A DNA stretch of 64,000 nucleotides from a bacterium (GCA_043827085.1 JBDRPO010000022.1:4481-68480); one strand, 5' to 3'. Counted from the stretch's first letter, positions 814-36,737 are shown. Made by a program: numbers and translations. The notes: generated by a model not told the origin, from the letters alone.

Positions 814-1764
814 ATGAAAGTATTAATTGCCGGTGGCGCCGGTTTCATAGGTTCTCATCTTTGTGACCGCTTACTTCAAGATGGCCACGAAGTGATCTGT
901 GCTGACAACTTCTCCTCCGGTTCCAAAGATAACATTACTCATCTTTTAGCTAATCCTAAATTTACTCTCATCGAGCAAGATATTTGTACTCCTCTACCTC
1001 CCAAAATCTCCAATTTATCCGCCATTTTTCACTTTGCTTCTCCCGCCTCCCCCAATCCCGACAGCCCCGTCTCCTATATGTCCCATCCCGTCGAAACCTT
1101 GATGGTGAATAGTCTTGGCACCAAAAATATGCTGGACCTAGCTGTCAAAAATAACTGTCAAATTATCTTTGCCTCGACCTCCGAAGTCTACGGTGATCCC
1201 GAGGTTCATCCTCAGCCAGAAACCTATCGTGGTAATGTTTCCCCCAATGGTCCTCGTAGCTGCTACGACGAAGGTAAACGCTTTATGGAGTCCATCGCTT
1301 TCACCTACGCCCGCAAGTTTGCTGCCAAAATTAAAGTTATTCGCATCTTTAATACTTACGGACCCCACATGCGCCTTGACGATGGACGCTTCACCATCAA
1401 TTTAATTGATTCCTATCTTAATCACAAATCCTTCAAAATGTTTGGGGATGGGAGTAGTACTCGCTCATTTTGTTATATTGATGATTTAGTCGAAGGTATC
1501 ATGCTAGTTGCGGGGAGCGATCAAGCCTTGGGAGAAGTAATCAATCTAGGTAACCCGAGCGAAATTGCGCTTATTGATGCCATCAAAGTATTTGAGAGTG
1601 TTATTGGGAGCGAGTTATCCAAGCAAAGAGAGGATTCTCAGCCCGACGATCCTCACCGTCGCTGCCCGGATATTACTAAGGTCAAACAGCTACTCGGTTG
1701 GGAACCCAAAATAGACTTTAGAACTGGGATAAAAAAGACTTTGGAATCTTATCGCCATGAATAA
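814..1764 (+). CDS. NAD-dependent sugar-nucleotide dehydratase/decarboxylase of the extended SDR family, UDP-glucuronate decarboxylase (UXS/ArnA-DH)-like
   Basis: Rossmann motif GGAGFIGSHL, then DNFSSGSKDNI, then the catalytic tyrosine block CYDEGKR, as in UXS-type enzymes. It lies 36 nt downstream of gmd. A GDP-6-deoxyhexose reductase or epimerase cannot be excluded. Confidence 0.6.
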   Translation: MKVLIAGGAGFIGSHLCDRLLQDGHEVICADNFSSGSKDNITHLLANPKFTLIEQDICTPLPPKISNLSAIFHFASPASPNPDSPVSYMSHPVETLMVNSLGTKNMLDLAVKNNCQIIFASTSEVYGDPEVHPQPETYRGNVSPNGPRSCYDEGKRFMESIAFTYARKFAAKIKVIRIFNTYGPHMRLDDGRFTINLIDSYLNHKSFKMFGDGSSTRSFCYIDDLVEGIMLVAGSDQALGEVINLGNPSEIALIDAIKVFESVIGSELSKQREDSQPDDPHRRCPDITKVKQLLGWEPKIDFRTGIKKTLESYRHE

Positions 1765-2920
1765 AGTCGTTATCATTATTCCTACCTATAATGAACGAGG
1801 CAACGTGGCCCCAGTCACGTTGGCACTGTCCAAGGTTTTTAAACAATGTGTGGGCTACGCCATGCACATCTTATTTGTTGACGATAACTCTCCCGACGGC
1901 ACGAGTCGCGAAATTGATAAACTCATCAAGAAGTACCCTTTTGTTCACATCCTCAACAACAAACGCAAAGGTGGACTCGGTCACGCCTACAAGAAAGGCA
2001 TGATCTATGCGCTTGATAAACTAAAAGCCGACATTGTCTTTGAATTCGACGCCGATCTCTCTCATGATCCAGGGAAAATTCCCGCCATGCTCGAGAAAAT
2101 TGCTGGTGGAGCTGATATGGTTTTGGGCTCTCGCTACCAGCGTGGAGGGGGAATTCCCGAAAACTGGCCACTCTACCGCAAATTCCTCTCTGTCGTTGGC
2201 AATCTCTTTATCCGCGTAGTCATGTTTAACTTTTCTCTCCACGACTGGACGACCGGTTACCGCGCCATCCGCGCCACACTTGTGCAAGCGATTATTCCTT
2301 CTATGCATAACTCCGCTTTTCATGGTTACACCTGGCAAATAGGTTTTCTCGTGCAAACTATCCAGAAAGGGTATAAAGTAGCCGAAGTGCCGTTTTATTT
2401 CAAAGATCGTACCTTGGGCCGCTCGAAACTAGGTCCAGAATTTATTATTAATACCATGAGGTATATTATGAAAGTTCGTCTAACCGAAATATTCCACTCT
2501 CGTATTATTAAATTTATTCTAGTTGGTGGTTTCGGCTCGGTAATTCAATTCACTTTCCTTTATCTCTATAGGATGTTTATTCCCGCCTACCAACTCGCCA
2601 TCTTTCTCTCGATCGAAACCGCTGTAATCTCCAACTTTACCTGGAGTAACCTCTGGACCTTTGCTGACCGTAAACTCAAAACTAGCCAAATTCCGGGTAA
2701 ATTTATCCAGTTTAACTTAGCTTCTGCCGGCTCCATCATCATTCAGCAAGTCGTGGCTTTCCTCGGCGAGAGATTTATTGGACTCTACCCTCTCTTTACC
2801 GTCCCTGTTGTACATCTCGGTGTTGATACTGGCGTGATGTTTGCGGTCATCGGCATCGCGATCGGAATGTTTTGGAACTTCTTTGCCTACTCCCGCCTCG
2901 TATGGCGCAAATCTACTTAA
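1757..2920 (+). CDS. Polyprenol-phosphate sugar synthase (Dpm1-like GT2) fused to a C-terminal GtrA-like 4-TM domain
   Basis: N-terminal VVIIIPTYNERGN ... FVDDNSPDGT ... FDADLSHDP are the GT-A DxD-type motifs of Dpm1/GtrB. The C-terminal ~130 aa (FILVGGFGSVIQFTFLY ... FWNFFAYSRLVWRK) matches the GtrA flippase family pattern. It overlaps the upstream gene by 8 nt. Confidence 0.75.
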   Translation: MNKVVIIIPTYNERGNVAPVTLALSKVFKQCVGYAMHILFVDDNSPDGTSREIDKLIKKYPFVHILNNKRKGGLGHAYKKGMIYALDKLKADIVFEFDADLSHDPGKIPAMLEKIAGGADMVLGSRYQRGGGIPENWPLYRKFLSVVGNLFIRVVMFNFSLHDWTTGYRAIRATLVQAIIPSMHNSAFHGYTWQIGFLVQTIQKGYKVAEVPFYFKDRTLGRSKLGPEFIINTMRYIMKVRLTEIFHSRIIKFILVGGFGSVIQFTFLYLYRMFIPAYQLAIFLSIETAVISNFTWSNLWTFADRKLKTSQIPGKFIQFNLASAGSIIIQQVVAFLGERFIGLYPLFTVPVVHLGVDTGVMFAVIGIAIGMFWNFFAYSRLVWRKST

Positions 2921-4019
2921 ACACTCCCCAGTCACTAATAGGTTGAATATTCTTGAGAATAAATTGCCACCCAAGTAAATAAATCGGGATAATCAGCACG
3001 GCCATTACCCACCATGCCTTTTTTGGTACTTTCGGTAGGCGTGGCGCATAACCCAAAAGCGCCATGGGTGCAATCGGCAAGGCGTACCTCCCCAAATCCC
3101 GGTGAGCCACGAAAAGTAATATCGCGCCGTATATCCATCCATACGCCTTGACTGTTTTGTCCTTCACCATGGCTAGGCCTAATCCATAAAACACGTAGAG
3201 ATAAATGATGTCTTCCCTCCACATATCACTAATCCAACTCTGCATATTAGAAAATATCTGAAAAGGCGGGAAAAACAGATGCAAGTTATCTCCCGAATGA
3301 AAGTATGCTAAAAGATCTTGGTATCTGAAGCCGTAAAACACAAACAACCCCACCAGTGTTAAGGGCATAATTAAGTAAGGGATAAAATGCTTAGGTTTAT
3401 GCCACATTGCCAAAATATAGCCCGCAAATAATATTATGCCTGGACTCCTGGTTAGTACTGCTAACGCTCCGGCAATTGCACTTGGCCAATACTTTTCTTT
3501 GATTGCCCAAGTTAACGAAACTAGGACAAAAGTCATAAACAAAGGTTCATTACTTCCAACTCCGCGCACCGACAGCATTCGCGCAGGAAAAAATAAGGCA
3601 ATCACGCTCATAATTAACGCCAATCGCCTATTTTTGAGCGTAGTCTCAAAAAACCAATATAGCCCGATAGCCAGTAGGACATTTGTCACAATAACTGCAG
3701 CAAGTAGTGCGTGGGGTGGCGGCAAGGCCAAACTAAAAAACTTGACGATGCCCGCAAAGAGTGGGAAGTGAGCCGCAAAATATATCGGATCATTGCCAGT
3801 CAGAAACTGGGCATTAATCTGCTCAATTACCTGTGGATTATACCAACTTTTTGCCACTACCAGAAAATTAAGGCCGTCAAAATTCTGAACAATCGTTTCC
3901 ATCCCACGTCCCCTGAAATCAATCCCCCCAAAACTACCCGTCTTCAGTATAAATGGAGTCCAAAACACAACCAGTGACATCAAACTCGCGATTCCCACAA
4001 GTAGCAAGTTTTTTCTCAT
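2913..4019 (-). CDS. Polytopic membrane protein, putative GT-C-type glycosyltransferase. Paralog of 35643..36737.
   Basis: Hydrophobic throughout. Shares the N-terminal block NFDGLNFLVVAKSWYNPQ with NWDGPSYVITAISLYNPQ of the 35643 gene. It is the only minus-strand gene in this part of the run. Confidence 0.5.
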   Translation of the reverse strand: MRKNLLLVGIASLMSLVVFWTPFILKTGSFGGIDFRGRGMETIVQNFDGLNFLVVAKSWYNPQVIEQINAQFLTGNDPIYFAAHFPLFAGIVKFFSLALPPPHALLAAVIVTNVLLAIGLYWFFETTLKNRRLALIMSVIALFFPARMLSVRGVGSNEPLFMTFVLVSLTWAIKEKYWPSAIAGALAVLTRSPGIILFAGYILAMWHKPKHFIPYLIMPLTLVGLFVFYGFRYQDLLAYFHSGDNLHLFFPPFQIFSNMQSWISDMWREDIIYLYVFYGLGLAMVKDKTVKAYGWIYGAILLFVAHRDLGRYALPIAPMALLGYAPRLPKVPKKAWWVMAVLIIPIYLLGWQFILKNIQPISDWGVFK

Positions 4020-4037
4020 ACCTATATACTACATGCA

Positions 4038-4742
4038 ATGAGCGTAAAACTCACTAGCTTATCGATCTTCATGCCAGCTTTCAACGAAGAGGGGAATATC
4101 ACCGCGACTTTGATTGACGCTGGTAAAGCCGCCAAAAGGATCACAAACGACTATGAAATTATCGTGGTTAATGACGGTAGTCGTGACAAAACTGCCGAAA
4201 TCGTCCAAGAACTAGCCAAGCTTGATCCTCATCTACGCCTGATCAACCACACAAGTAACAGGGGGTACGGTGGAGCCGTCAAAACTGGCATGTCTGCCTG
4301 CCGCAAAGACTGGATCTTTTTTACCGACTCTGACGGTCAATTTCACTACGACGAGCTCATTAAATTTGTTGAAGTCAGCGGGTCATTCGATCTCGTCATG
4401 GGCTATCGCAAAAAACGCATGGATCCTTTTCACCGCGTCTTTGTCGCTCAAGTCCTCCTAAAAGTCTGGAATTTTGCCTTGTTTGGTTTGACCGTTCGCG
4501 ACGTCGATTGTGCCTATAAATTATTTAGGCGGGAGGTGAGGGACGCTATCAAACTAAAAACCGAGAGCGCCATCACCGTCTCCGAATTCATTATTAAATC
4601 CTATGCTCTCGGCTTTAGGATCAAACAAATGCCGGTGTCTCACTACGCTCGTCGCTTTGGAGAGCAGACCGGCGGCAATTGGCGCGTGATCGCCAGAGCA
4701 GCCAGGGAAAGCTTCCGACTCTGCAAAGAACTGCATCCATGA
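4038..4742 (+). CDS. Family 2 glycosyltransferase (polyprenol-phosphate glycosyltransferase-like)
   Basis: SIFMPAFNEEGNI ... IIVVNDGSRD ... FFTDSDGQF (DxD) ... GYRKKR. Soluble, 234 aa, with no TM tail. Confidence 0.75.
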   Translation: MSVKLTSLSIFMPAFNEEGNITATLIDAGKAAKRITNDYEIIVVNDGSRDKTAEIVQELAKLDPHLRLINHTSNRGYGGAVKTGMSACRKDWIFFTDSDGQFHYDELIKFVEVSGSFDLVMGYRKKRMDPFHRVFVAQVLLKVWNFALFGLTVRDVDCAYKLFRREVRDAIKLKTESAITVSEFIIKSYALGFRIKQMPVSHYARRFGEQTGGNWRVIARAARESFRLCKELHP

Positions 4743-6256
4743 ACTACCTAAAACGCAATTGGCTCATTATTCTCATCCTTATCCTGGCTACATTTACTCG
4801 TCTCTACCGCCTTCCCGCGACCATTACTTTTCTCGAAGACGAAGGACGCGATTTACTCATCGCGCACCGGATGATCGACACCCACAGACCTGTCCTCCTT
4901 GGTCCGCAAACTTCCACGGGCAACATGTATTTAGGCCCCCTCTATTATTATCTGATTACCCCTTGGCTCTTCGCTTTTCAGGGCAGCCCGATTGGTCCCG
5001 TCATCTTCATTGCTTTGACAGGGATATTGACAGTTTATTTGCTTTACCGCTTTGGTTTGCGCTGGTTTAGTCCGCGAGTTGGTTATCTAGCGGCTTTGCT
5101 TTATGCCCTCATGCCTCTCCCTGTCCAGTTTAGTCGCAACTCCTGGAATCCCAATCTAGTCCCGCTTATTTCGCTCCTCCTAGTTTGGACTACCCTTCAC
5201 TTAAGTTCTCATCCCCGCGTGCGCCGCCTAACCTACTTTGCGGGTCTTGGTGCCTTAGTCGGGATCTTGGTCCAGCTTCACTACATGGCGCTGATCTTCG
5301 TCGCTGCCCTCGGATTACTCAATCTCTTTTTATGGCGCAAGCAACTGAAAAGTTTCACCCTGGGTGTTCTTGTCTCCCTAGTGGCTTTCGCTGCCGTTCT
5401 TTCTCCCTTTATTGTTTTCGAGATCAGGAATAATTTTGTTAATACCAAAGCCATTACCAGTTTTATCAAAGCCGATCGTGAGAAAAATATCCGCTACTCA
5501 TTACCGTTCTGGCTCTGGGAGGGCAAAGTTGCCGCAACCGGCACTAAATTATTGGGCAGTCAATTAGGCCGTGGAGCCTTGAGTCCCGATGTCCTTAGTC
5601 CCGCCATTACCGTGATCGCCCTCACTCTTATTATCTTTGGTCTTTGGTCTACACCCATCTATCGTATGATCGCCTTTCTTTTTATCTTGCCGCTTTTAAC
5701 GCTAGGCATCTATCAAGAATCAATTCATCTTCACTACATCGGTTTCTTTTTTCCGCTTACATATTTACTTATTGCCTCACTGATAGATCGGGGCAAATTA
5801 CTTAGCCGTTTAGCTATCCTATTCGTCATTTATACTTTGATCTACTCCATCCCTTCCACTCTGAGCTACATTAGCTCTGGTCCCACTAACCAAGTTATCC
5901 GGGCGAGCGAAGTTTCACAGTACATTGTCAAGGAATCCGCAGGACGTCCTTATAACATGGTGAGTTCCGGGAAAACTCATACCACTCCGTACCTCTACTT
6001 TTCTGCCATCTCACCCTTACCTCCGGTAAATACTCACGCCCCCCTTCTCTTTTTAATCTGTCAAGACAATCCCTGTTCTGACGAGGATATTAACTCTCCA
6101 CTTCTCTATATCACGGGTCCCGCCCATCCTACTCTAGTCAACTATCTTGGTCATCCGCTCTACAACTACTATGATCAACCAAGAACGCTCATTAAAATGG
6201 AGCACGTCTCTCACGGGGTTTGGGTCGCTGAAATAAATGTTAAACTAGTACCATGA
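4739..6256 (+). CDS. GT-C superfamily (ArnT/PMT, COG1807-like) membrane glycosyltransferase, paralog family A
   Basis: Start taken at the in-frame ATG at 4739 (MNYLKRNWLIILI...), overlapping the upstream stop as ATGA. First-loop acidic motif FLEDEGRD, then LLGP....YLGPLYYYLITP, then more than 10 predicted TM helices. Paralogous to 23789..25189 and 25197..26714. Confidence 0.6.
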   Translation: MNYLKRNWLIILILILATFTRLYRLPATITFLEDEGRDLLIAHRMIDTHRPVLLGPQTSTGNMYLGPLYYYLITPWLFAFQGSPIGPVIFIALTGILTVYLLYRFGLRWFSPRVGYLAALLYALMPLPVQFSRNSWNPNLVPLISLLLVWTTLHLSSHPRVRRLTYFAGLGALVGILVQLHYMALIFVAALGLLNLFLWRKQLKSFTLGVLVSLVAFAAVLSPFIVFEIRNNFVNTKAITSFIKADREKNIRYSLPFWLWEGKVAATGTKLLGSQLGRGALSPDVLSPAITVIALTLIIFGLWSTPIYRMIAFLFILPLLTLGIYQESIHLHYIGFFFPLTYLLIASLIDRGKLLSRLAILFVIYTLIYSIPSTLSYISSGPTNQVIRASEVSQYIVKESAGRPYNMVSSGKTHTTPYLYFSAISPLPPVNTHAPLLFLICQDNPCSDEDINSPLLYITGPAHPTLVNYLGHPLYNYYDQPRTLIKMEHVSHGVWVAEINVKLVP

Positions 6257-7005
6257 AACCACTCGTTTCTGTCATCTTGCCCAATTATAACGAACTCGAA
6301 AACCTCAAGCGGGGAGTTCTTAACGATATTGCCAATTATTTAGACACTCAATCATATGGCTGGGAAGTTATTATCTCTGACGATGGCTCAACCGACGATA
6401 GTACTGCTTATATCGACAATTTTGTTGCTGAACATCCCAATTTTAGACTATTAAAGAACACTCACGCCGGCAAGCCATACGCACTCAAAAGTGCGATCAA
6501 AATTGCGCAAGGGGATTATGTTCTTTTCACCGACATGGATCAGTCCACTCCGATCGACCAGCTTGATAAACTATTGCCCTATACCAAGGATGGGTTTCGC
6601 GTTGTGATCGGCTCTCGCGGCATCCGCCGACGTGATTCTAGTCTGATCCGTCAGCTCGCCTCAGTCATTTTCCTCTTGGCACGCAAAATATTCCTTCTGC
6701 GAAGCATCAAAGATACCCAGTGTGGTTTTAAACTTCTTGAGACTGCTCTAGCCAAAAAGATTTTCACCCGCATGCGGCTTTTTGGTAGAGCTCACAAGAC
6801 CGTCGGTTGGAAAGTCACCGCCTATGATGTTGAGTTGCTCTTTCTCGCCGAAAAGCTCGGAGAAGAAATCCAAGAGGTAAGAGTAGTTTGGCGTGACGAA
6901 GACACAAGTTCCGATAAAAAGCGAAATTTTATCAAAGAAAGTATCGAAATGTTTGTCGAAATTCTCCGTGTCAGTGTCAATGATATGTTGGGTAAATACA
7001 ACTAG
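6253..7005 (+). CDS. Family 2 glycosyltransferase (Dpm1-like)
   Basis: VSVILPNYNELENL ... VIISDDGSTDDS ... FTDMDQS (DxD). ATGA overlap with the upstream gene. Confidence 0.75.
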   Translation: MKPLVSVILPNYNELENLKRGVLNDIANYLDTQSYGWEVIISDDGSTDDSTAYIDNFVAEHPNFRLLKNTHAGKPYALKSAIKIAQGDYVLFTDMDQSTPIDQLDKLLPYTKDGFRVVIGSRGIRRRDSSLIRQLASVIFLLARKIFLLRSIKDTQCGFKLLETALAKKIFTRMRLFGRAHKTVGWKVTAYDVELLFLAEKLGEEIQEVRVVWRDEDTSSDKKRNFIKESIEMFVEILRVSVNDMLGKYN

Positions 7006-7084: not shown

Positions 7085-8224
7085 ATGTTAAATATCCTCT
7101 GGCTTATATTATCCATAGCTCTTTTTGTTTACAGTTACGGCTTTGTTGACTTTAATCTCACCCTCTCTTCTCACTATTTGGTGACTAGTTTTGTCTCTTG
7201 GTCTCAAGGCCTAGCTATGTTTCACCGCTCGACCTCCCTCTACGTTTATCTCGGCTTAATGGGAATGCTGTATTTGTGTTACTTTATCACGATATCAAAA
7301 TGGCGCCACTTTACCGCTTTCCCCTGGAAAATCATCGCTCTTGTTGCTCTTTTTTTTGCTCTTTCCTATCCCTTTCTATCCTCCGATGTTTTCAAATATC
7401 TCTTCAGTGCCAAAGAACTTTTGGTCTATCATGCTAATCCTCACGTCGTTGCTCCCCAAGTTTTTGCCGGAGATACCTGGCTTCGTTTTATGCGCTGGAT
7501 TCACACCCCGAGCCCCTACGGTCCAGTCATGACCGGGCTCGCGATTCCCTATTATCTCTTGGGTTTTGGCAAGTTTGTTCCCTCACTTTACTTATTTAAA
7601 CTCGATCAAATTTTTTGGTACGGTTTGTCTATTTGGGTAATTGGTAAATTAGCAGGTAAGCGGGCGGTTATGGCCCAACTCTTTTTTGCGCTCAATCCCC
7701 TGATTCTTATCGAGTGGCTCGTTAATTCCCACAACGATGCCCCCATGATCTCGCTTTTGTTGTTTTCCCTCTACCTGCTTACCCTCACTCGGAGATTACC
7801 CGCACTCATTTCTCTCTTATTTTCCATTGGCATTAAATACGTGACTATCATCTTCCTTCCAATTATCTTAATTTCAAAGAAATATACAATTAACCTAACA
7901 TCTATTATCTATTATCTAATATCTGTATTGGCGCTCGCGCCCATACTTTATCATTATCAAATCCAGTATCAACCGTGGTACGTTACCTGGCTTGTGCCTT
8001 TTGCTGCTCTCTCTGGTTCAATTCCTCTGATGGGGATGACCGCTGCCTACAGTTTCGGTGCCATTCTCCGCTACATCCCCTTCATCCAGTTGGGGCTCTG
8101 GCAGGGGAGTGGTCGCTATTTTGCTCTCCTTACCTTCACCCCCATGGTTCTCTCTGCTCTCTACTTCCTTCTTCTCCGTTTTTTCCGCCAATATCACTCC
8201 CCAGAAACCAAAAACCAGTTATAA
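7085..8224 (+). CDS. Polytopic integral membrane protein of unknown function, putative GT-C glycosyltransferase
   Basis: 379 aa, more than 9 hydrophobic segments, no soluble domain. Sits in an operon with GT-C genes. Confidence 0.45.
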   Translation: MLNILWLILSIALFVYSYGFVDFNLTLSSHYLVTSFVSWSQGLAMFHRSTSLYVYLGLMGMLYLCYFITISKWRHFTAFPWKIIALVALFFALSYPFLSSDVFKYLFSAKELLVYHANPHVVAPQVFAGDTWLRFMRWIHTPSPYGPVMTGLAIPYYLLGFGKFVPSLYLFKLDQIFWYGLSIWVIGKLAGKRAVMAQLFFALNPLILIEWLVNSHNDAPMISLLLFSLYLLTLTRRLPALISLLFSIGIKYVTIIFLPIILISKKYTINLTSIIYYLISVLALAPILYHYQIQYQPWYVTWLVPFAALSGSIPLMGMTAAYSFGAILRYIPFIQLGLWQGSGRYFALLTFTPMVLSALYFLLLRFFRQYHSPETKNQL

Positions 8225-8231
8225 TGAAGTC

Positions 8232-9725
8232 ATGCAGTGGTTCCCAAAAATAAAGAAACTCGAGTGGTTAGTTATTCTTTCTCTGGTTATTGTCTATTTC
8301 GCCTTCACTCTAACTAATTTGACCAAACTCCCCATTTTCGTCGATGAAGCACTCTACTTACGTTGGGCTCAGATCGCCTGGCACGACGCGTCTTGGCGTT
8401 TTATTAGCTTAACCGACGGCAAGCAGCCCCTTTACGTCTGGTTCGTCATTCCTTTTATGAAGATGATCTCCGATCCACTCTCCGCCGGGCGCACCGCTTC
8501 CGTCGTTTGTGGTCTCTCCACCTTTCTGGGTATGGGATACCTAGGTTGGCTGATCAAAGACAAAAAAACCGCACTTATCGCCATGATTCTTGCCATGTTT
8601 TCACCCTATCTCTTCTTTTATTATCGCTTCGGCGTCATGGAATCCATGCTAGTATCTGGCTCTATTTGGGTATGCAGCTTTTCAATACTCCTTGCCCGCT
8701 CGCGCCGCCTTGACGTCGCCATGATTCTCGGCATGATTGCGGGCGCGACCATGTTGACTAAGTCATCTGGTACTTTCTTTTTGCTCCTCATACCTTTTGC
8801 CTACCTCCTCGTAGTTGACTTCAAGCAATTCTTTTCCTCTATAACTTTTAACTACAGTATCTTAGTGCTAGTCTCATGGCTACTTGCCACCGTGATCTAT
8901 AACGTGCAGCGTCTTTCTCCCTGGATGCACATGATTGCAGAAAAAAACGCTTTCTTTATCGTCCCGTACAACGAAATCTTTAATGAACTCGGTCGCATCT
9001 TCAATAATTTTCACGATGTCTGGCGCTGGCAAATTGCCTACACAACACTCCCCATCCTCTTATTGGCCCTATTCGGCTTTTATCTCGTTATTCGCCGAAA
9101 TTGGCGACTAGGCATATTCCTTTCCGCTTGGCTCTTTGGCCCCATGCTTGGTACCGTACTCCTAGCTAAACTCTTTGCCCCTCGCTATATTATCTTTGTC
9201 ACTCCCTTTATCCTCTTATTTGCTGCTTATGCGCTCGCTTCTATCAAATCTTACTCACTCCGCTTTTGGACAAGCATGCTCGTAATTCTTCTCCCCATTA
9301 TCCTGATTGGGAAACTAATTAGTAATCCCATTACTTTCCCATATGTCTCGGTAGACGAAGGGTATGTTAACGGTTGGTCAGCCGGGGAGGGGACTAAACA
9401 AATTGCCGACTGGGCGGTGGCCCGGATTCATACCATTGGGAAACCCATCACTATTTTTACCGAAGGCACCTTTGGTATTTTGCCTCACGGCCTTGAGCTC
9501 TATGCTGACGGACGAGTAACTGGTTTGACCATCAGGGGGTTATATCCCATTAACTCGATTCCACCGCGAGAAGCACTAGAATCTGTCAAAGATAATCTCG
9601 AAACCTATCTAATTCTCAACAACACTCAAACCTACGGTCCTCAAAATGGTCTCGAACTCGTGAGTGAATATGCCAAGCGTGATCCAAAATACACAATGCG
9701 TCTTTATCGCATTATGCCCAAGTGA
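8232..9725 (+). CDS. GT-C superfamily membrane glycosyltransferase (ArnT/PMT-like)
   Basis: Start at the internal ATG (MQWFPKIKKLEW...), which is residue 59 of the track ORF. The upstream part overlaps the previous gene. Motif PIFVDEALYLRWAQ in the first loop. More than 10 TM segments plus a C-terminal soluble domain. Confidence 0.55.
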   Translation: MQWFPKIKKLEWLVILSLVIVYFAFTLTNLTKLPIFVDEALYLRWAQIAWHDASWRFISLTDGKQPLYVWFVIPFMKMISDPLSAGRTASVVCGLSTFLGMGYLGWLIKDKKTALIAMILAMFSPYLFFYYRFGVMESMLVSGSIWVCSFSILLARSRRLDVAMILGMIAGATMLTKSSGTFFLLLIPFAYLLVVDFKQFFSSITFNYSILVLVSWLLATVIYNVQRLSPWMHMIAEKNAFFIVPYNEIFNELGRIFNNFHDVWRWQIAYTTLPILLLALFGFYLVIRRNWRLGIFLSAWLFGPMLGTVLLAKLFAPRYIIFVTPFILLFAAYALASIKSYSLRFWTSMLVILLPIILIGKLISNPITFPYVSVDEGYVNGWSAGEGTKQIADWAVARIHTIGKPITIFTEGTFGILPHGLELYADGRVTGLTIRGLYPINSIPPREALESVKDNLETYLILNNTQTYGPQNGLELVSEYAKRDPKYTMRLYRIMPK

Positions 9726-29500: not shown

Positions 29501-31103
29501 GTTCCTCAAAAACCCACTGGTATTAATCCTTGCTCTGGCGGCCTTTTTACGTTTATTTATGCTGACGAGTGTCCCCCCCAGCCTCAATTGGGACGAAGTC
29601 TCGATGGGTTACACTGCCTACTCCTTGTCTCAAACTGGCATGGATGAGTGGGGTCAGCGGTTACCTTTATTATTCCGCTCCTACGGAGAATGGAAATCCG
29701 CGGTTTACATTTACCTCCTTGTCCCCATGGTCAAGTTTTTCGGCATGAACGCTTGGTCAGTCCGGCTTCCCTCAGCCATTGCCGGCATTCTCGCCGTCTA
29801 TTTGACCTACTTGATCGGCAAAAAAATCTACAGTGAAAAAGTCGGTTTATGGTCAGCTTTCTTCCTTGCCATCTCGCCTTGGCATCTCTTACTCTCTCGT
29901 CCCGCCTTTGAAGCCAACGTCAGCCTCACTCTAATCCTGGCTGGACTTTACTTGTTTCTGAGATTTAACCTAGAATCTAAAGTCTATCTTCTAATATCTA
30001 GCGCTATTGCGCTAGGCTTAGCTCCCCATACTTATAATAGTGCGAAGGTTGTGGTCCCCATTCTTGCCCTCTACTTAATTTGGTCGACCAAGTTGCACAA
30101 GAATCTCAAACAACTCGTCATTTTTCTGGGCGTCCTGACGCTCTTTGCCGCCCCCCTCTTTATTGACCTCTTTTCGGGTCGCTCGCAGTTTCGTTATTCG
30201 CAAGTTGGCGTCAGCACTGATATCAAGGGACTCAACGAATTTATTAACTATCGCAAAAATCCTCATCTCCCACCCATTGTTGGCAAGCTGCTTTTCAATC
30301 GCTACACTTATTCCCTCAGCCGCGCATCTTATAACGGCCTCTCCTACTTTAATCCCGCTTTTCTCCTTGTCGAAGCCGGTGACCACAACCAACATCATGT
30401 CCGCAATTTTGGTGTGCTCTACGTTGCCGAATTTATCTTTGTGCTATCTGGGCTTTTGACGCTTTTTAGCAAGAAATCCCGCCTCATCAACTTCTTGCCA
30501 TTAGTAATTATTGGCTTGGGCATTATCCCGGCTGCTTTGACCCGCGACCAAGGTCATGTCCTGCGTAGTCTCTTGACCCTTCCCGGTTGGCAACTCCTCG
30601 CGGGACTAGGCATCGCCTCGCTCCAGCCCTCTAAGTTCAAAAAATGCTTGCTTTGCCTCCTTATCGTACAAGCATTTATTTTTATGCTTGCCTATTTCAT
30701 CTGGTACCCGCAAACCTTTGCCCGTGACTGGCAATATGGCCACAAAGAAGTGGCGGGGTATCTGCGTCTCCACGAGAATGAATATGACAAAATCGTCATG
30801 ACCAAGTGGTACGGTGAAGCCCAACTTTTCTTGGCTTTTTATAATAAATGGGATCCACTCCGCTACCAACAAGACAACATCCCCAATCTGCGCTACGAAT
30901 CAGAAGGCAAAATCTGGCTCGATCAGCTCCCTGAATATAGTCTCGGCAAGTACACTTTCAAATACCTGAACTGGCAAGCTGAAGACAAGTCAGAGAAAAC
31001 TCTCTACATCGGGAAAGGGGACGACTTCTACATCGACTCGAAGATCGTCAAGACGATTAACTTCCCCGACGGTACTCCTGCCTTTGTCCTCGTCGAACCA
31101 TAA
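29493..31103 (+). CDS. ArnT/PMT-family (PMT_2-like, COG1807) lipid-carrier-dependent glycosyltransferase
   Basis: SLNWDEVSMGYTAYSL first-loop DE motif, GEWKSAVYIYLLVP, about 12 TM helices, and a C-terminal soluble domain. Overlaps the upstream gene by 8 nt. Confidence 0.7.
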   Translation: MLKFLKNPLVLILALAAFLRLFMLTSVPPSLNWDEVSMGYTAYSLSQTGMDEWGQRLPLLFRSYGEWKSAVYIYLLVPMVKFFGMNAWSVRLPSAIAGILAVYLTYLIGKKIYSEKVGLWSAFFLAISPWHLLLSRPAFEANVSLTLILAGLYLFLRFNLESKVYLLISSAIALGLAPHTYNSAKVVVPILALYLIWSTKLHKNLKQLVIFLGVLTLFAAPLFIDLFSGRSQFRYSQVGVSTDIKGLNEFINYRKNPHLPPIVGKLLFNRYTYSLSRASYNGLSYFNPAFLLVEAGDHNQHHVRNFGVLYVAEFIFVLSGLLTLFSKKSRLINFLPLVIIGLGIIPAALTRDQGHVLRSLLTLPGWQLLAGLGIASLQPSKFKKCLLCLLIVQAFIFMLAYFIWYPQTFARDWQYGHKEVAGYLRLHENEYDKIVMTKWYGEAQLFLAFYNKWDPLRYQQDNIPNLRYESEGKIWLDQLPEYSLGKYTFKYLNWQAEDKSEKTLYIGKGDDFYIDSKIVKTINFPDGTPAFVLVEP

Positions 31104-31121
31104 TGGTTTATACTAATTCCT

Positions 31122-31904
31122 ATGGATTCAAAAAAGATTAATCTCTCGATCGCTCTGGCTGTCTATAACGAAGAAGAAACCCTTGGGGATTGTCTGAAGT
31201 CAATCGAAGGTCTTGCCGACGAGATAGTGATCGTCGACGGGCACTCTACCGATAAAACGGTCGAAATTGCGGGAAGTTACGGTGCCAAAGTCATCTCTGA
31301 AGAGAATCGAACCAACTTTCACATCAATAAACAGCACGCGATTGACGCCTGTGTGGGGCCCTGGATTCTCCAGCTCGACGCCGACGAAAGGGTGAGCTCC
31401 ATGCTCGCGGCTGAAATCAAGCAGATTGTGACTCAGTCTCCCGCTGGTCTCCCCGCCGCCTATTACCTCAAGCGAAGGAACTATTTCCTCGGCCGCTGGA
31501 TGAACAAGGGTGGCATGTATCCTGACCCAGTAATCCGCCTCTTCCAGCAGGGGAAGGCGCGCCTCCCTCAAGCCAGCGTCCACGAGCTCATGGAGGTCAC
31601 GGGAGGCACCGGGTGGCTCAGCAACGATCTCTTGCACATTGCCGACCCCAACTTCTCTCGCTACCTCCTCAGAAGCAATAGATACACTTCTTTTCAGGCA
31701 GATGATTGGCTCAAGGAAGGTAAAATCGGCACCGATTCCTGGAGTATCATTCTCTATGTGTTATTAAAGCCCCTCGCTCGTTTTCTCTCTATTTATTTCC
31801 GCCACAAGGGTTTCCTGGACGGCTTTCCCAGCTTTGTCTTTGCTTGGTACTCTGGTATTCATATCGCCAGCTCCTACGTGAAATACTGGGAAAAGAAAAA
31901 ATAA
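31122..31904 (+). CDS. GT2-like glycosyltransferase (WaaE/KdtX-like subgroup)
   Basis: LSIALAVYNEEETL ... IVIVDGHSTDKT ... LQLDADERV ... C-terminal KGFLDGFPSFVFAWY. Confidence 0.7.
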   Translation: MDSKKINLSIALAVYNEEETLGDCLKSIEGLADEIVIVDGHSTDKTVEIAGSYGAKVISEENRTNFHINKQHAIDACVGPWILQLDADERVSSMLAAEIKQIVTQSPAGLPAAYYLKRRNYFLGRWMNKGGMYPDPVIRLFQQGKARLPQASVHELMEVTGGTGWLSNDLLHIADPNFSRYLLRSNRYTSFQADDWLKEGKIGTDSWSIILYVLLKPLARFLSIYFRHKGFLDGFPSFVFAWYSGIHIASSYVKYWEKKK

Positions 31905-31908
31905 TCCT

Positions 31909-33522
31909 ATGCGTGCATTCATCAAATCCCACGCCCCGTATCTTCTTGCTATTACTTTTATAGTCATGTTTCTTACCCGCAATCTCTGGGGAACTCGTGC
32001 CTGGATCGAGACTCACGACGGAATCTTTCACCTCATTCGCCAGGAGGTTTTTACTGATGTATTAAGAACAGGACAATTTCCGGTTCGCTGGGCCAGCTCT
32101 CTAGACAATGGTTTTGGCCTGCCCTTATTCAATTATATCTACCCTGGTCCCTATTATCTGGGTTCCCCGCTCTCTCTCCTAGGCCTTAGTTCCAAGTGGG
32201 TCATCAAAGCGGTCGAAATTGGACTATATCTAGTCGGTGGCTTTGGGATGTATTTTTTACTATTCCGTAAGAATAAGTTATTTGCCACGGTTGCCGCCAT
32301 CTTTTATCTCACCACTCCCTATTTCCTCCTGAATATCTTTGTTCGTGGGGCTCTGGGGGAATTTATGGCCATTTCTTTCATGCCCTGGATTTTGCTTTCT
32401 CTGCAGGATTTGTCAGTCAGGAAAGGCTTACGTTGGTACCACCCGCTCCCGTATTTTTTTATGTTTATCGCCCATAATTTCTTGAGTTTTCTCTTCTTAC
32501 CCATTTACTTCCTAGTCGTCATGCAATATAGAAAAATATGGAAGACTAGTATTGCCAGCCTTGTTTTGTCGCTAGGTTTAGCTGCTTTTTTCGTGCTCCC
32601 CATGCTACTGGAGCGCAATTTACTGTTCTCGGTTACTAACCAGAATTTTACCTACAACTACCTCGACCATTTTGTGTATCCTATTCAGTTGATCTATGGG
32701 AAATGGGGGAATGGTCACTCCTACGCTGGCTTAAATGATAGGATCTCCTTCGCCCTAGGCTTAACTGCTCTTATAGCGCTCATCTGGGGGACCATCACCG
32801 CGATCAGGCGCCATAATCCAGACTTAACTCGCTGGCTTATCATTACTGGTCTGGTTCTATTTTTTACGCTACCTTTCTCGCTCCCAATTTGGCAACTCGT
32901 TAAACCGCTCCAAATGATTCAGTTCCCTTGGAGATTATTGTCATTCACCCCGATTACCGTTCCCCTCGTCAGTTTTTATCTTCTCTTAAGTCAAAAAAAA
33001 TCCCGTGCCATATATATAATCATCGGGATTTTGGTTGTCATTAGTCTCTATTTTGCGACTCGTTACTCAACTCCTCCATATTTTCAAAATAACGACCAGC
33101 TAGCTCAACAATTTTATATTCATCGTGACCAAACGACTACCTCCTCGCGTATTGAGATGTTGCCTCGCTGGGCACCGCTTAAAGAGAAATGGAAGGGTGA
33201 GGAGAATCTTCGTGTGGAGCGAGGTTCCTCATCCGTGACTTCAGTTACTTCAACTCCTACCAAAATTGTCTTTACCGCTGAGACAGAAGATCCAGACGCA
33301 ATCTATCGAATCCGCCGCAATTATTTTCCCTCTTGGTCAGTCAAAGACGAATCAGGCGCTTCCTACGACCTTGAGCCGACAGTTGATGGTGAGATCAACT
33401 TTACCGGCAGTACAGGGGGTCACACTTATACCGTCTACGTCGGTAGCACGAAAATAGAAATTTTGGCCAACCTTATTTCTCTCTTAGCTCTTATCTATTT
33501 GTTAAAATTGGGTTTCCGCTAA
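31909..33522 (+). CDS. Large polytopic membrane protein, paralog family B
   Basis: WIETHDGIFHLIRQEVFTDVLRTGQFPVRWASSLDNGFGLPLFNYIYPGPYY. C-terminal soluble tail with a final TM segment. Confidence 0.55.
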   Translation: MRAFIKSHAPYLLAITFIVMFLTRNLWGTRAWIETHDGIFHLIRQEVFTDVLRTGQFPVRWASSLDNGFGLPLFNYIYPGPYYLGSPLSLLGLSSKWVIKAVEIGLYLVGGFGMYFLLFRKNKLFATVAAIFYLTTPYFLLNIFVRGALGEFMAISFMPWILLSLQDLSVRKGLRWYHPLPYFFMFIAHNFLSFLFLPIYFLVVMQYRKIWKTSIASLVLSLGLAAFFVLPMLLERNLLFSVTNQNFTYNYLDHFVYPIQLIYGKWGNGHSYAGLNDRISFALGLTALIALIWGTITAIRRHNPDLTRWLIITGLVLFFTLPFSLPIWQLVKPLQMIQFPWRLLSFTPITVPLVSFYLLLSQKKSRAIYIIIGILVVISLYFATRYSTPPYFQNNDQLAQQFYIHRDQTTTSSRIEMLPRWAPLKEKWKGEENLRVERGSSSVTSVTSTPTKIVFTAETEDPDAIYRIRRNYFPSWSVKDESGASYDLEPTVDGEINFTGSTGGHTYTVYVGSTKIEILANLISLLALIYLLKLGFR

Positions 33523-33531
33523 AATCAACCT

Positions 33532-34566
33532 ATGCGTGTTCAAATTTCCACTTGTCCCATTCGTCAAGCCAGTCGCGTCCGCGGGGTGGGTATCTACACC
33601 CGCCAGCTTGAAGCTGCTCTTGTCAAAAAATATCCGGGCGATCAATATACTGTCTCCAGTACTCTCCAGAGCGGCATCGACCTCATCCACTACCCGTATT
33701 TTGAACCCTTCTTCCTCACTATGCCTTTAACCCACTCAGTTCCCGTCGTGGTCACCGTTCACGATCTGATTCCGCTTAAATACCCCGAGCACTTCCCCAA
33801 AGGTTTGCGGGGAACCCTCAAATGGCAACTGCAAAAGCTGGCGGTCCGTCGGGCTAACCATATTATTACCGACTCAAAGGCGTCTGCCGAAGATATTGCC
33901 AGAATTTTGCATTACCCCGCTCAGAAAATCTCTGTTATCCCGCTTGCTTCCGGCGCCGCGAGGACTACCACCAAAACCAAAGCCAAAGTGGTGGCAGACT
34001 ACCAACTTCCCGCACGCTTTGCTCTCTATGTGGGCGACCTCAACTGGAACAAAAATATTCCCGGGTTGATTCGCGAGTTTTCCAAGTTAGAAAATAGTAC
34101 CCTACACTTAGTTCTCGTCGGCCAGGCTTTTACAGCCAAGCCCCCTTCCTTTGAACTTCTTCAAGTGCAGGCTGCGGTTGCCGCCAGCGGCGCGAGGGAC
34201 AAAATCCACCTCATTGGTTACGTCCCGAGCCATCACCTCCCCGGTATCTATAGTCTTGCCACCATCTATGTTCAGCCTTCCTGGGATGAGGGCTTCGGCC
34301 TAACCCTTCTCGAAGCCATGGCCGCCGACTGCCCGGTCATCTCCTCCAGTCGCGGGAGCCTACCCGAAGTAGGAGGGGATGCTGTTATATATTTTAATCC
34401 AGGGAAGCCCGGTGATCTCACCGAAAAGCTAGCTACCCTCACTCGCTCTCCCGATGTTCGCTCGCAGCTAGTTGAGTTAGGCCGTCTCCAACTCAAACGT
34501 TTCTCCTGGGATCAAACTGCGGAGTTAACACATGCAATATATGAAAAAGTCTTGGCTAATCATTAG
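33532..34566 (+). CDS. Family 4 (GT-B) glycosyltransferase
   Basis: YVGDLNWNKNIPGLIREF ... EGFGLTLLEAMAADCPVISS (GT4 E-x7-E). Confidence 0.75.
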   Translation: MRVQISTCPIRQASRVRGVGIYTRQLEAALVKKYPGDQYTVSSTLQSGIDLIHYPYFEPFFLTMPLTHSVPVVVTVHDLIPLKYPEHFPKGLRGTLKWQLQKLAVRRANHIITDSKASAEDIARILHYPAQKISVIPLASGAARTTTKTKAKVVADYQLPARFALYVGDLNWNKNIPGLIREFSKLENSTLHLVLVGQAFTAKPPSFELLQVQAAVAASGARDKIHLIGYVPSHHLPGIYSLATIYVQPSWDEGFGLTLLEAMAADCPVISSSRGSLPEVGGDAVIYFNPGKPGDLTEKLATLTRSPDVRSQLVELGRLQLKRFSWDQTAELTHAIYEKVLANH

Positions 34567-35635
34567 TATTTGGATTGCCATCTTAGTTGGAGCTATCTTC
34601 TGGACAGTTTCAAAGTATCCCATATACACTCCATCATTCCCGTATCATCAGACTATTGCCCATTTGCCCCGCCAACTCTCTATTTTGGGCAATTTCGACG
34701 GTGCCAATTACCTCTGGATTTCCACTCACGGTTACCCTATCAAGGGAGGTGAAGTCGCCTTTTTCCCTCTTTATCCCATTTTAATTAGCACGCTCGTCAA
34801 TCTCGGCATTGAGCCACTCTATGCTGCCCTTATTTTTAACTTATTCTGCGTTACAATAATTGGTTTATTGATCCATCAACTTTATCCCAAATTATCTGCC
34901 AAATTCCTCTTGCTATTTCTTTCTTTTCCGGTCAGTTTTTATCTGGTATCTGCCTACACTGAAACTTTATTTATTTTATTCTTCCTCACTTTTATGCTCT
35001 GTCTTAAACAGCAACGTTGGTGGTTGGCGGCCCTCATCGCCGGCCTGGCTTCCGGTACTCGTCTCGTCGGAGCTATCTTTGGTGTCATCCTCATTATTGA
35101 ATACTTTCGCTATCATCCTATTACCATTAACCATAAACTATTGACCATGTTTATCCTCTCCGAGCTAGGCCTTCTCGCTTATATGTATTTTCTCTTTACC
35201 ACCAGGGGAGATCCACTCTCATTTATTCACGCTCAACCGCTCTTTGGGATGGGTAGGTCTGGAGGAGAAATCATTTTTTTGCCTCAGGTTCTATATCGCT
35301 ATCTTAAAATGCTTTTGACCGTCGATACGATGAGTCTCCTATATTGGCGGGTCCTCTGGGAACTGCTGACCTTTTTAGCTTCACTTTACCTCCTGATCAA
35401 ATATTGGGTCAAACTTACACCAGCTGAACGGATATATACTGCTTGGGTGGTATTACTCCCAACTCTCTCTGGCACGCTTTCCTCTTTTCCACGCTATGCC
35501 CTTGTTGCTATCCCACTTTTTCTTGCCGTAGCCAAAGAGATCAAACCCATTTACCTGACTTTTATCGTCCTAGCCCAATCTTCTCTTCTCATCTTCAATC
35601 TTATCCTCTTTACTCGTGGTCTTTTTGTAGCATAA
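34532..35635 (+). CDS. PIG-V-like (Mannosyl_trans2-type) polytopic membrane glycosyltransferase candidate
   Basis: ILGNFDGANYLWISTHGYPIKGGEVAFFPLYPIL, about 9 TM helices. Homologous to the C-terminal half of 27626..29500. Confidence 0.5.
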   Translation: MQYMKKSWLIISIWIAILVGAIFWTVSKYPIYTPSFPYHQTIAHLPRQLSILGNFDGANYLWISTHGYPIKGGEVAFFPLYPILISTLVNLGIEPLYAALIFNLFCVTIIGLLIHQLYPKLSAKFLLLFLSFPVSFYLVSAYTETLFILFFLTFMLCLKQQRWWLAALIAGLASGTRLVGAIFGVILIIEYFRYHPITINHKLLTMFILSELGLLAYMYFLFTTRGDPLSFIHAQPLFGMGRSGGEIIFLPQVLYRYLKMLLTVDTMSLLYWRVLWELLTFLASLYLLIKYWVKLTPAERIYTAWVVLLPTLSGTLSSFPRYALVAIPLFLAVAKEIKPIYLTFIVLAQSSLLIFNLILFTRGLFVA

Positions 35636-35642
35636 TTGCCTT

Positions 35643-36737
35643 ATGCCTAAAGCCTGGAAAATTATTATTGCTGTTTACCTTGGCCTCACCGTCATTTTCT
35701 ACAGCTATTATTTCTTTTTCAAAGAAACCAAACTTGATACCGTTTACAAAAACTGGGATGGCCCCAGCTACGTTATCACTGCTATTTCACTTTACAATCC
35801 CCAAATTGCCTACGATAACAACTTTATTCAGTCAACCGATATTAAACCCACCTGGACTTGGCTCCCCGCTCACTTTCCCCTCTATCCTTGGCTGATTAGG
35901 GCATCCTCTGCCATTGGCTACTTCCCCGCCATGCTCCTTATTTCTCAGATTTTCTCGCTCGCTACATTCATTGCTTTTTACGAATTTGTCCGAAGAATTA
36001 AACTCACCAACTCTCCGCTCCCCCTCACGCTTCTCATGATGCTCCTACCGCCTCGCTGGTTTATTGTCTCTCACATAGGGGCAAGCGAACCAATTTTTCT
36101 TTTCTTTATGCTCCTAATGCTCCTGTTCTGGCACCAAAAAAAGCATCTAACTGCCGCCATTTTTGGCGCCGTTGCTCAGCTTGCCCGCCCCCAGGGGATT
36201 TTGCTCTTTGCCGCCGTCGGTCTTTTTGCACTCTACGAAATGATCGTCAAAAAGATGAATATATATACCCAACTCAAAACTTACCTCCCATATTTCCTGA
36301 TTCCCGCCTCACTCCTAGGAGTATTTGTCTATTTTTACTTCCGTACCGGAGACTTTTTTGCTTTCTTTAGTGCCATAAGCATTTTTAAGCATACTCAAAT
36401 TTTACCTTTTACGGTTTTTACCTATCCCGCTCCCAACGTAGAGACTTATTGGCAAGAAATTAACGCCGTTAACTACGTCGTCTATCTAGCCTCCATCTTT
36501 GTTTTGTTCCGTCGTCGGCTCTTTCGCCTTGGTATCCTTGGCCTCATCTTCTTTCTCCCGCTGCCATTCCTGCGACACTCTGACATTTCTCGCTACGCAC
36601 TCCCCCTTATGCCTCTGGCCTTTATCGCCTTCGAAGACTTACTTTCCAGGCGCGAATTTGTGCTCGCTGCCTACTTCATGTCTCCGGCTATCATGGCCTA
36701 CGCCGTCAATTTTATGACCTTTAATCGCACCATCTAG
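35643..36737 (+). CDS. Polytopic membrane protein, paralog of 2913..4019. Putative GT-C.
   Basis: NWDGPSYVITAISLYNPQIAYDN block. More than 9 TM helices. Confidence 0.5.
   Translation: MPKAWKIIIAVYLGLTVIFYSYYFFFKETKLDTVYKNWDGPSYVITAISLYNPQIAYDNNFIQSTDIKPTWTWLPAHFPLYPWLIRASSAIGYFPAMLLISQIFSLATFIAFYEFVRRIKLTNSPLPLTLLMMLLPPRWFIVSHIGASEPIFLFFMLLMLLFWHQKKHLTAAIFGAVAQLARPQGILLFAAVGLFALYEMIVKKMNIYTQLKTYLPYFLIPASLLGVFVYFYFRTGDFFAFFSAISIFKHTQILPFTVFTYPAPNVETYWQEINAVNYVVYLASIFVLFRRRLFRLGILGLIFFLPLPFLRHSDISRYALPLMPLAFIAFEDLLSRREFVLAAYFMSPAIMAYAVNFMTFNRTI

Follow-up and report, generated by a model that had tools for sequence, protein, structure and literature searches.

What would a bacterium with a sub-megabase genome do with some 25 membrane glycosyltransferases encoded in one locus? 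The question is raised by a 64,000-nucleotide stretch of a bacterial metagenome-assembled genome (MAG; GCA_043827085.1, JBDRPO010000022.1:4481-68480), called here the window, with positions counted from its first letter. A first-pass annotation of this sequence had pointed to at least 14 polytopic proteins with motifs of GT-C-type glycosyltransferases on one strand within about 35 kb (positions 1757-36737), and to about 25 in the window. Both counts held. Hydropathy and all-versus-all BLAST identify 25 polytopic GT-C-type membrane proteins. Sixteen of these lie within 1757-36737, 14 on the plus strand (g06, g08, g09, g10, g11, g15, g18, g20, g21, g24, g25, g27, g29, and g30) and two more on the minus strand (g04 and g22), and nine lie 3′ of that interval (g36-g40, g43, g44, g46, and g49).

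With a cut-off of at least 150 amino acids, 49 open reading frames (ORFs) were called in the window, close-packed and with frequent start/stop overlaps of 4 to 8 bp. Pfam scans of all 49 proteins describe a region almost wholly devoted to glycan biosynthesis. By Pfam, BLAST, profile, and fold evidence 39 of the 49 are glycosyltransferases, whose genes together fill ~83% of the window; the GT-C genes span ~38.4 kb, or ~60%. Pfam further assigns nine genes and one domain fused within g24 to GT2, and five genes to GT4. Because the reviewed model Gram-positives (Bacillus subtilis, Lactococcus lactis, Listeria, and Staphylococcus aureus) have one to three GT-A/GT-C pairs per whole genome (PMC8035078), the density of GT-C genes in the window is far beyond chance. 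The earlier claim that the locus is far more elaborate than described O-antigen or lipoteichoic acid glycosylation loci agrees with the same review, and it extends to wall teichoic acid loci (PMC8035078). For one complete Microgenomates genome, "29 genes of glycosyl transferases" were deemed notable (PMC7143001).

The assignment of the membrane proteins to GT-C begins with eight that exceed Pfam gathering thresholds (genes on the plus strand unless stated). Three match PMT_2: g06 (4679-6256, 37.4 bits), g09 (8058-9725, 32.1 bits), and g15 (16623-18068, 48.9 bits). The GT39/GT83-like g25 (29493-31103) matches both PMT_2 (57.4 bits) and PMT (46 bits against a cut-off of 22.7), the latter being the only match to the PMT model in the window. 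PTPS_related is matched by g10 (9722-11302, 47.9 bits) and g27 (31909-33522, 51.1 bits), and GT87 by g18 (20205-21653, 27.2 bits against a cut-off of 25). In g24 (27626-29500), a cytoplasmic GT2 domain (residues 10-128) is fused to a PIG-V-like GT-C domain that matches Mannosyl_trans2 with 49 bits (residues 280-472). This union of a GT2 (GT-A) enzyme and a PIG-V-like GT-C in one polypeptide also occurs in four of the related loci that we collected (L001, L002, L056, and L072; see below), and most Microgenomates carry the GT-C part alone, without the GT2 half.

All-versus-all BLAST joined six more proteins to these eight. The PTPS_related-like g20 (22222-23811) matches g10 (3e-23) and g27 (7e-18). 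The PMT_2-like g21 (23789-25189) and g22 (25197-26714, minus strand) match g06 (9e-25 and 9e-16, respectively); g22 itself falls 0.7 bit short of the Pfam cut-off (25.4 against 26.1 bits). The remaining three are PIG-V-like: g29 and g30 (together 34532-36737), of which g29 matches the g24 C terminus (3e-30), and g04 (2913-4019, minus strand), which matches g30 (3e-24) and g24 (6e-5) and scores 98.8% against the g29 family in hhalign.

Beyond these 14 proteins the evidence comes from profile and fold comparisons. The probable GT-C proteins g11 (11289-12665) and g43 (54165-55454, minus strand) form a family of their own (BLAST 1e-6), which aligns with the PMT_2 family over 305 columns in hhalign (95.6%, E 1e-8). 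Family E consists of g36 (741 amino acids) and g37 (543 amino acids), both on the minus strand (42180-46036). The C terminus of g36 is a beta-sandwich resembling carbohydrate-binding modules (CBMs) of families 35 and 6; g37 aligns to g36 over residues 3-606 only and appears to be without the CBM. Family E gave no sequence match in Pfam, NCBIfam, or the PDB. Its hhalign scores to GT-C families are about 95% or more, and an AlphaFold2 model built with 43 homologs reached a pLDDT of 89.5 and a pTM of 0.87. Family G comprises g46 (58318-60462; uncatalogued), the probable GT-C g38 (46204-48099, minus strand; BLAST to g46 2e-6), and g49 (63312-64000, minus strand), the C-terminal part of a third member that is cut by the window end. 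g49 is 40% identical to the g46 C terminus; its full gene, ABII21_04400, encodes 667 amino acids, and a 680-amino acid gene occurs in locus L093. The family G model (pLDDT 84.1, pTM 0.86), like that of g36, is a multi-helix membrane bundle. Fold searches with families E and G returned only GT-C enzymes as top matches, AftD among them. In Foldseek, the top 15 matches of g46 were all GT-C with probability 1.0; MATE, MFS, and Wzx folds stayed <0.4 with TM-scores of ~0.1. It is by this search with a predicted structure that family G is placed in GT-C; hhalign of family G and g44 against the GT-C families of the window gave no signal.

Family F (g39 and g40, 48092-51933, minus strand) is probably GT-C as well. 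The C-terminal domain of g39 is CBM-like, as in g36, and homologous to the family E domain (hhalign 99.4%). A search of 1.84 billion proteins produced 2079 hits with E <1e-3, and the family alignment was enriched with 55 remote homologs. The enriched membrane domain aligns with the PTPS_related family over 214 columns (94.6%, E 7e-8), placing the invariant GNND loop of family F near the loop-1 Asp of g27. Some homologs of family E carry DUF6311. Pfam scans of every member of families E and F and the g44 family found nothing significant except DUF6541 in two remote homologs of family F (7e-11); the window proteins and most homologs fall short of these DUF models, and the fold result points to GT-C. 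Profile searches of the PDB with the family alignments A1-A5 yielded nothing useful. From these scans, families E (g36/g37) and G (g46/g38/g49), and probably also g39/g40 and g44, appear to be missed by Pfam-A (2025) and NCBIfam (2026).

Two further proteins complete the set. g08 (7085-8224) is probably GT-C, resembling MptA, MptB, and GT87, on weak evidence: its NCBIfam matches to MptA (7e-7) and MptB (2e-4) are both far under the cut-offs, and hhalign to the GT87 protein g18 gives 53%. For g44 (55423-57027), with 10 predicted transmembrane (TM) helices, Pfam (including a scan of every family member), NCBIfam, PDB, and hhalign searches were without signal. It is a GT-C candidate by motif and gene context: the family has an invariant PSDEE motif in loop 1, and a g44 homolog divergently adjoins a g05-like GT2 of 230 amino acids in eight of eight distant loci (39-45% identity).

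What unites the proteins is their topology and first loop. The 24 candidates wholly inside the window have 6 to 12 TM segments predicted from hydropathy, and in 22 of 22 paralogs inspected an acidic motif directly follows TM1. All motifs quoted by the first-pass annotation are present there: EDEGRD in g06 (residue 53), FVDEAL in g09 (94), QDDW in g11 (28), DWDEG in g15 (42), WDQERD in g21 (38), WDEV in g25 (33), and FDGxxY in g24 (FDGEHY, 321) and g29 (FDGANY, 55). Acidic residues also occupy the first loop of g04, g10, g20, g22, g27, g30, g37, g43, and g44. Little or no variation of the motif is seen within family E (D30), family F (N125 and D127), and the g44 family (D47, E48, and E49). This is where GT-C enzymes have their catalytic acidic residue, and a catalytic role for the loop-1 residues is suggested by their position.

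Conservation of this loop bears on the idea that many of the paralogs are something other than transferases: Wzy/WaaL-like polymerases or ligases of GT-C fold, dead scaffolds, or acceptor-binding subunits. Pfam recognizes no Wzy or WaaL in the window despite a Wzx flippase, the GT-C-fold matches include one member that is not a glycosyltransferase (PIG-U), and separate acceptor-binding partners have been speculated upon (PMC8035078). However, the loop-1 acidic motifs are kept in the 22 paralogs inspected and are invariant within E, F, and g44, and the profile matches are to the transferase families PMT_2, PTPS_related, PIG-V, and GT87. We regard this explanation as quite improbable.

Graded by strength, 16 of the 25 are firmly GT-C, four (g39, g40, g11, and g43) follow at about 95%, and five are probable or plausible, among them g08, g38, g44, and g49. 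Pfam, BLAST, hhalign, and two fold searches thus support GT-C-type enzymes rather than permeases, as the first reading had proposed. A transporter or permease reading of the membrane proteins was considered and rejected: the only transporters are g12 (Wzx) and g31 (ABC-2), and transporter folds scored <0.4 for g46 in Foldseek.

We then asked where the sugars for so many transferases might come from. The gene g03 (1757-2920) encodes an archaeal DPMS-type polyprenol-phosphate-hexose synthase, a GT2 with a four-TM GtrA/DPMS domain (Pfam GtrA_DPMS_TM), which matches the Pyrococcus furiosus dolichol-phosphate-mannose synthase (5mlz) over its full length (E 3e-46). The fusion of a GT2 to a GtrA-type domain had been remarked on from the start; it is present but is the native DPMS architecture and no novelty. 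g47 (60484-61422) is by homology a GtrB-type GT2 with two predicted C-terminal TM helices, of the GtrB/ArnC/PgfS type of polyprenol-phosphate-sugar synthase. Its full-length PDB matches are GtrB sll0501 (5ekp, E 2e-67) and ArnC (2e-39), and NCBIfam PgfS scores 220 bits. g05 (4038-4742) is a short ArnC/Dpm1-like GT2 by Pfam and a candidate lipid-phosphate-sugar synthase, its best NCBIfam and PDB matches being ArnC and DPMS over the entire catalytic domain. g07 (6253-7005) is an ArnC/DPMS-like GT2 (best PDB matches ArnC, 7e-12, and DPMS, 3e-11). As a putative synthase g05 is the more convincing of the two, since other genomes have g05 homologs paired with GT-C genes. NCBIfam scans gave sub-threshold matches only, far under equivalog cut-offs.

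Hence three of the four Dpm1/GtrB-like GT2 proteins that had been placed within 1757-36737 are found there (g03, g05, and g07), and the fourth, g47, lies near the other end of the window. The interleaving of GT-C genes with such synthase-like GT2 genes and with soluble GT2 and GT4 genes is as first described. The description of a three-component module repeated many times did not survive. GtrA_DPMS_TM is present once, at the C terminus of g03, and no stand-alone GtrA occurs among the Pfam-scanned ORFs of at least 150 amino acids (smaller ORFs were not scanned systematically). The donor side would consist of three to four candidate synthases (g03, g47, g05, and g07) and a single GtrA-type domain for ~25 GT-Cs. 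That the GT-Cs use polyprenol-phosphate or -diphosphate donors is suggested by context, namely their adjacency to DPMS-, GtrB-, and ArnC-like GT2 genes.

Among described bacterial systems, the Gram-positive multi-component glycosylation systems are the closest kind (PMC8035078). The window shares with the three-component systems (GtrA/GtrB/GtrC, CsbB/GtcA/YfhO, ArnC/ArnT, and L. lactis CsdAB/CD/EF with CflA) homologs of the GT2 polyprenol-phosphate-sugar synthase (g47 and g03), a GtrA/DPMS-type TM domain, and PMT_2-type GT-C genes beside GT2 genes (g05/g06, g46/g47, and the g44 family with g05-like genes). Whereas known organisms have one to three pairs per genome, the window has ~25 GT-Cs, three to four synthases, and one GtrA-type domain. 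It adds a Wzx flippase, an ABC exporter, and 14 soluble glycosyltransferases, which make it a biosynthetic cluster and not a decoration cassette, and several of its GT-C families are uncatalogued.

In mycobacteria and corynebacteria, arabinogalactan, lipomannan, and lipoarabinomannan (LAM) are assembled by EmbA/B/C, AftA-D, MptA/B, and PimE, many GT-Cs sharing the donors decaprenyl-phosphoryl-arabinose and polyprenyl-phosphomannose; Emb and AftD carry CBMs. With few donors and many transferases, the layout of the window would be closer to this arabinogalactan/LAM assembly than to Gtr cassettes. There are nevertheless clear differences: the window proteins show no sequence-level orthology to Emb or Aft, their donors are probably hexoses and not arabinofuranose, and the organism belongs to the Candidate Phyla Radiation (CPR). 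The window genes form one 64-kb cluster in a lineage with genomes of ~0.8-0.9 Mb; those of mycobacteria are spread over a genome of 4.4 Mb.

Taken together, these comparisons lead us to propose that the window is probably the core of a cell-envelope glycan "supercluster" of a Microgenomates (CPR/Patescibacteria) bacterium. The proposal is built on gene content, GT-C fold and family assignments, donor-synthase homologies, the CBM-like fold, and synteny, all of which are established; from them we infer which donors and acceptors are used, in what order the steps run, and that every paralog is catalytically active. Cytoplasmic GT2 and GT4 enzymes would first build lipid-linked glycans, using nucleotide sugars made in part by g01/g02 (by Pfam a fragment of GDP-mannose 4,6-dehydratase and an epimerase) and the DegT aminotransferase g45. 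By Pfam, the soluble enzymes are the double GT2 g13 and the GT2 g14 (together 14121-16663), the GT2s g23 (26742-27635) and g26 (31122-31904), and the GT4s g17 (19357-20394), g28 (33532-34566), and g33-g35 (38398-42202, three genes). To these is added the GT2-like g16 (17971-18828), which matches g26 (BLAST 4e-24) and also the C-terminal half of g13. The GT2 members g13, g14, g16, g23, and g26, and the N-terminal domain of g24, look like ordinary soluble transferases.

In a second step, intermediates would cross the membrane through g12 (12613-14124), a Wzx/MOP-type flippase for lipid-linked oligosaccharides and not a GT-C (Pfam Polysacc_synt_3, 1.4e-64), and through g31/g32 (36753-38401), a Wzm/Wzt-type glycan exporter composed of an ABC-2 permease and an ATPase (Pfam). 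Third, g03 (DPMS-type), g47 (GtrB-type), g05, and g07 would make lipid-phosphate-sugar donors that are flipped outward. Finally, ~25 GT-Cs of at least eight sequence families (PMT_2-like, PTPS_related, PIG-V-like, GT87-like, g11/g43, E, F, G, and g44) would act on the outer face, each adding a specific residue or linkage. This battery would extend, branch, or decorate one or more wall glycopolymers and possibly surface proteins. The CBM35/6-like domain of g36 and g39 most likely holds the polysaccharide acceptor. The same has been proposed for Emb and AftD, and acceptor binding is the presumed role of the AftD CBM (PMC8035078).

Several points weigh against the supercluster proposal. The functions of the genes are read here from the genes themselves. 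Pfam finds no priming phosphoglycosyltransferase, LytR-CpsA-Psr ligase, or recognizable Wzy/WaaL in the window, so that the visible part of the pathway to the acceptor polymer has gaps. Whether g07 is a lipid-sugar synthase or an ordinary GT2 is uncertain. g44 is without homology support from Pfam, NCBIfam, PDB, or hhalign, and g08 and g38 are weakly supported. Four synthases for 25 GT-Cs would also mean that many GT-Cs share donors, which would be plausible from the mycobacterial analogy. A precedent for the proposal is that, in multi-component transmembrane glycosylation systems, one flippase is common to several GT-A/GT-C pairs (PMC8035078).

Protein rather than polysaccharide could be the acceptor. 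The GT-Cs would then mainly perform PMT-like general O-glycosylation of S-layer proteins, pilins, and other secreted proteins. Some resemblance exists to PMT (GT39) and ArnT (GT83), since g25 passes both the PMT and PMT_2 models, g06, g09, and g15 pass PMT_2, and the loop-1 motif is of the DE type. The initial statement that the families do not obviously match ArnT or PMT fails for the at least eight proteins that pass Pfam thresholds, and stands for g36/g37, g39/g40, g38/g46/g49, and g44. The PMT/PMT_2-type proteins of the window differ from PMT and ArnT in being 480-555 amino acids long and without MIR, and in that at least six divergent paralogs (24-33% identity) lie side by side. No MIR domain was matched by Pfam in any of the 49 window proteins; to our knowledge, bacterial Pmt homologs likewise lack MIR. 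Some paralogs, especially g25 with its PMT match and WDEV motif, may act in protein O-glycosylation, and as the main role of the GT-Cs we consider it unlikely.

To place the locus in its lineage, relatives of g24 were searched in contigs of one genome per GTDB species, and 79 loci, each reaching 10 kb to either side of a g24 homolog, were compared; loci of relatives are numbered here with the prefix L. The relatives are overwhelmingly Microgenomates/Patescibacteria (Daviesbacteria, Woesebacteria, Levybacteria, Blackburnbacteria, and others), and homologs of family E are annotated as Gottesmanbacteria and Roizmanbacteria. The 79 loci hold a median of 2.85 GT-C-like ORFs per 10 kb, a figure that reflects conservation of the cluster and not genome-wide density, as the loci were picked through a cluster gene. 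Because comparable GT-C clusters occur in these 79 related, mostly Microgenomates genomes, the GT-C-rich cluster is, on gene content, typical of the lineage, and the window is a large instance of it. The density had been called exceptional, which calls for qualification, as GT-C-rich clusters are the norm around this locus in the 79 genomes. The complete genomes among the g24 relatives measure 0.82-0.92 Mb, so that 64 kb equals about 7% of such a genome.

The order of genes from g13 to g32 is kept in three other MAGs, with g24 identities of 78% (L002), 57% (L001), and 54% (L003). Within this shared backbone, the closest relatives, L001 and L002, lack g20 and g22, and identity to L002 is uneven, at 38-42% for g19, g21, and g29 versus 64-82% for most neighbors, a pattern that suggests cassette turnover. 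These differences are what a hypervariable surface-antigen locus would produce, in which paralogs are gained, lost, and replaced under pressure from phages or hosts to give strain-specific glycans, so that a subset of the genes matters in each strain. The number of PMT_2 paralogs, typically four to six, ranges from 0 to 6 among the 79 loci, as such turnover would predict. However, the g13-g32 backbone is retained across MAGs that share only 54-78% identity, and the Pfam matches of the window proteins include no repeats, recombinases, or mobile-element genes. Hypervariability has a fair claim to consideration, short of an even chance; it is also compatible with the supercluster explanation and not exclusive of it.

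The same synteny bears on whether the density could be an artefact of chimeric or collapsed assembly or of over-called ORFs. The source is a MAG contig (exact matches to window proteins carry the locus tags ABII21_04350, ABII21_04385, and ABII21_04400), and in a second, Logan assembly of the run (SRR26275510) the sequence is interrupted at ~19.3 kb. Yet GC content is uniform along the window (0.42-0.49), the Logan contig independently covers ~19.3-64 kb, and the gene order across 19.3 kb (g16, a 147-amino acid ORF, and g17), like that of g13-g32, is reproduced in the three MAGs, which come from other samples. The paralogs are 24-33% identical to one another in all-versus-all BLAST and so are not collapsed repeats. 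A chimeric assembly, which the first-pass annotation had named among the findings that would undo it, was accordingly rejected on uniform GC, synteny in L001-L003, and the second assembly, and an artefact of any of these kinds is hardly credible.

In L080, a Patescibacteria MAG, six consecutive genes of families E and F stand with a GT4 (g34/g35-like), a g05-like GT2, a DegT gene, and the same ABC-2/ATPase pair, so that the alternating E/F operon is conserved. This locus also encodes (828-1874, plus strand) a CBM35/6-like domain fused to a hexapeptide-repeat acyltransferase. Because the CBM-like domain is found on g36, g39, and this acyltransferase, it behaves, as far as its distribution tells, as a portable acceptor-binding module for several glycan-modifying enzymes.

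All components of the locus are of known kinds. What is new is their scale and concentration: within 64 kb, a tiny genome encodes ~25 GT-Cs that belong to at least eight families. New, too, are a layout that combines few donors with many transferases in a CPR bacterium, the joining of a GT2 and a GT-C in g24, and the GT-C-fold families outside Pfam-A and NCBIfam. The literature searched, which leaves out most subscription journals, held no account of an expansion of GT-C genes in Microgenomates; earlier CPR papers speak broadly of abundant glycosyltransferases (PMC3812714, PMC7143001). The Microgenomates-enriched families of hypothetical membrane proteins, for some of which a transporter function had been guessed (PMC6744442), can be re-read as possible glycosyltransferases. 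The locus enlarges the known GT-C repertoire, in some families with CBM-like domains, and offers concrete biochemical targets; it is of interest to glycobiologists and CPR researchers and overturns no concept.

CPR bacteria, ultra-small and for the most part uncultured, are believed to live attached to hosts, and next to nothing is known of their surface chemistry. Should a single GT-C-dominated cluster take up ~7% of a sub-megabase genome, surface glycans would be a major investment of the lineage and likely central to attachment, host specificity, or phage defense. A bolder reading, which we offer tentatively and hold to be doubtful, is that Microgenomates, for all that their genomes measure ~0.8-0.9 Mb, carry out most of the assembly of their main envelope glycopolymer outside the membrane with a mycobacteria-like battery of ~25 GT-Cs and few donors, as a defining trait of the whole lineage. 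If true, the trait might help these bacteria to attach to hosts or evade phages, no fewer than three GT-C families (E, F, and G) and possibly g44 would be escaping Pfam and NCBIfam models, and some "hypothetical membrane protein" families enriched in Microgenomates might be accounted for.

A few other genes are scattered among the glycosyltransferases. g41 (51980-52657) encodes a PAPS-reductase-family protein and g42 (52667-54178) a sulfatase/phosphodiesterase-family protein without TM helices, both on the plus strand among GT-C genes. The conservation of g41 is unusually strong, at 92% identity to its homolog in L089 versus 58-69% for the neighbors, and the pair raises the question of sulfation or phospho-modification of the glycan. 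Adjoining the GtrB-like g47 on the minus strand, g48 (61419-63278) encodes a three-domain thiamine-pyrophosphate enzyme (acetolactate-synthase-like) that could serve a pathway of unusual sugar or phosphonate modification. Between two GT-C genes on the plus strand, g19 (21650-22213) encodes a small predicted lipoprotein with a weak LPAM signal. It is 42-45% identical in L001 and L002 versus about 70% for its neighbors, and could be a fast-evolving surface component or acceptor.

The 147-amino acid ORF between g16 and g17 (18861-19304, plus strand) fills the only sizeable gap of the plus-strand run. L001-L003 have it in the same place, with 54-60% identity, and in L087/L088 homologs stand twice beside the g44-family locus. 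The ORF product has the look of a small helix-turn-helix protein (TrpR/YerC-like) and is possibly a regulator; its PDB match is insignificant (E 0.8).

Many of the related MAGs deposited as third-party annotations, including L001, L002, and L009-L012, are titled "uncultured Gammaproteobacteria/Pseudomonadales". These labels look wrong, because the gene content and the nearest named relatives are Microgenomates.

GC skew in the window is strongly and evenly negative, in every 2-kb bin (-0.09 to -0.27; cumulative -5.46 over 1-64000) and independent of gene strand, including the minus-strand genes at 42-52 kb. This strand asymmetry is unusually large for bacteria and recalls the [quoted passage not shown] of a complete Microgenomates genome (PMC7143001).

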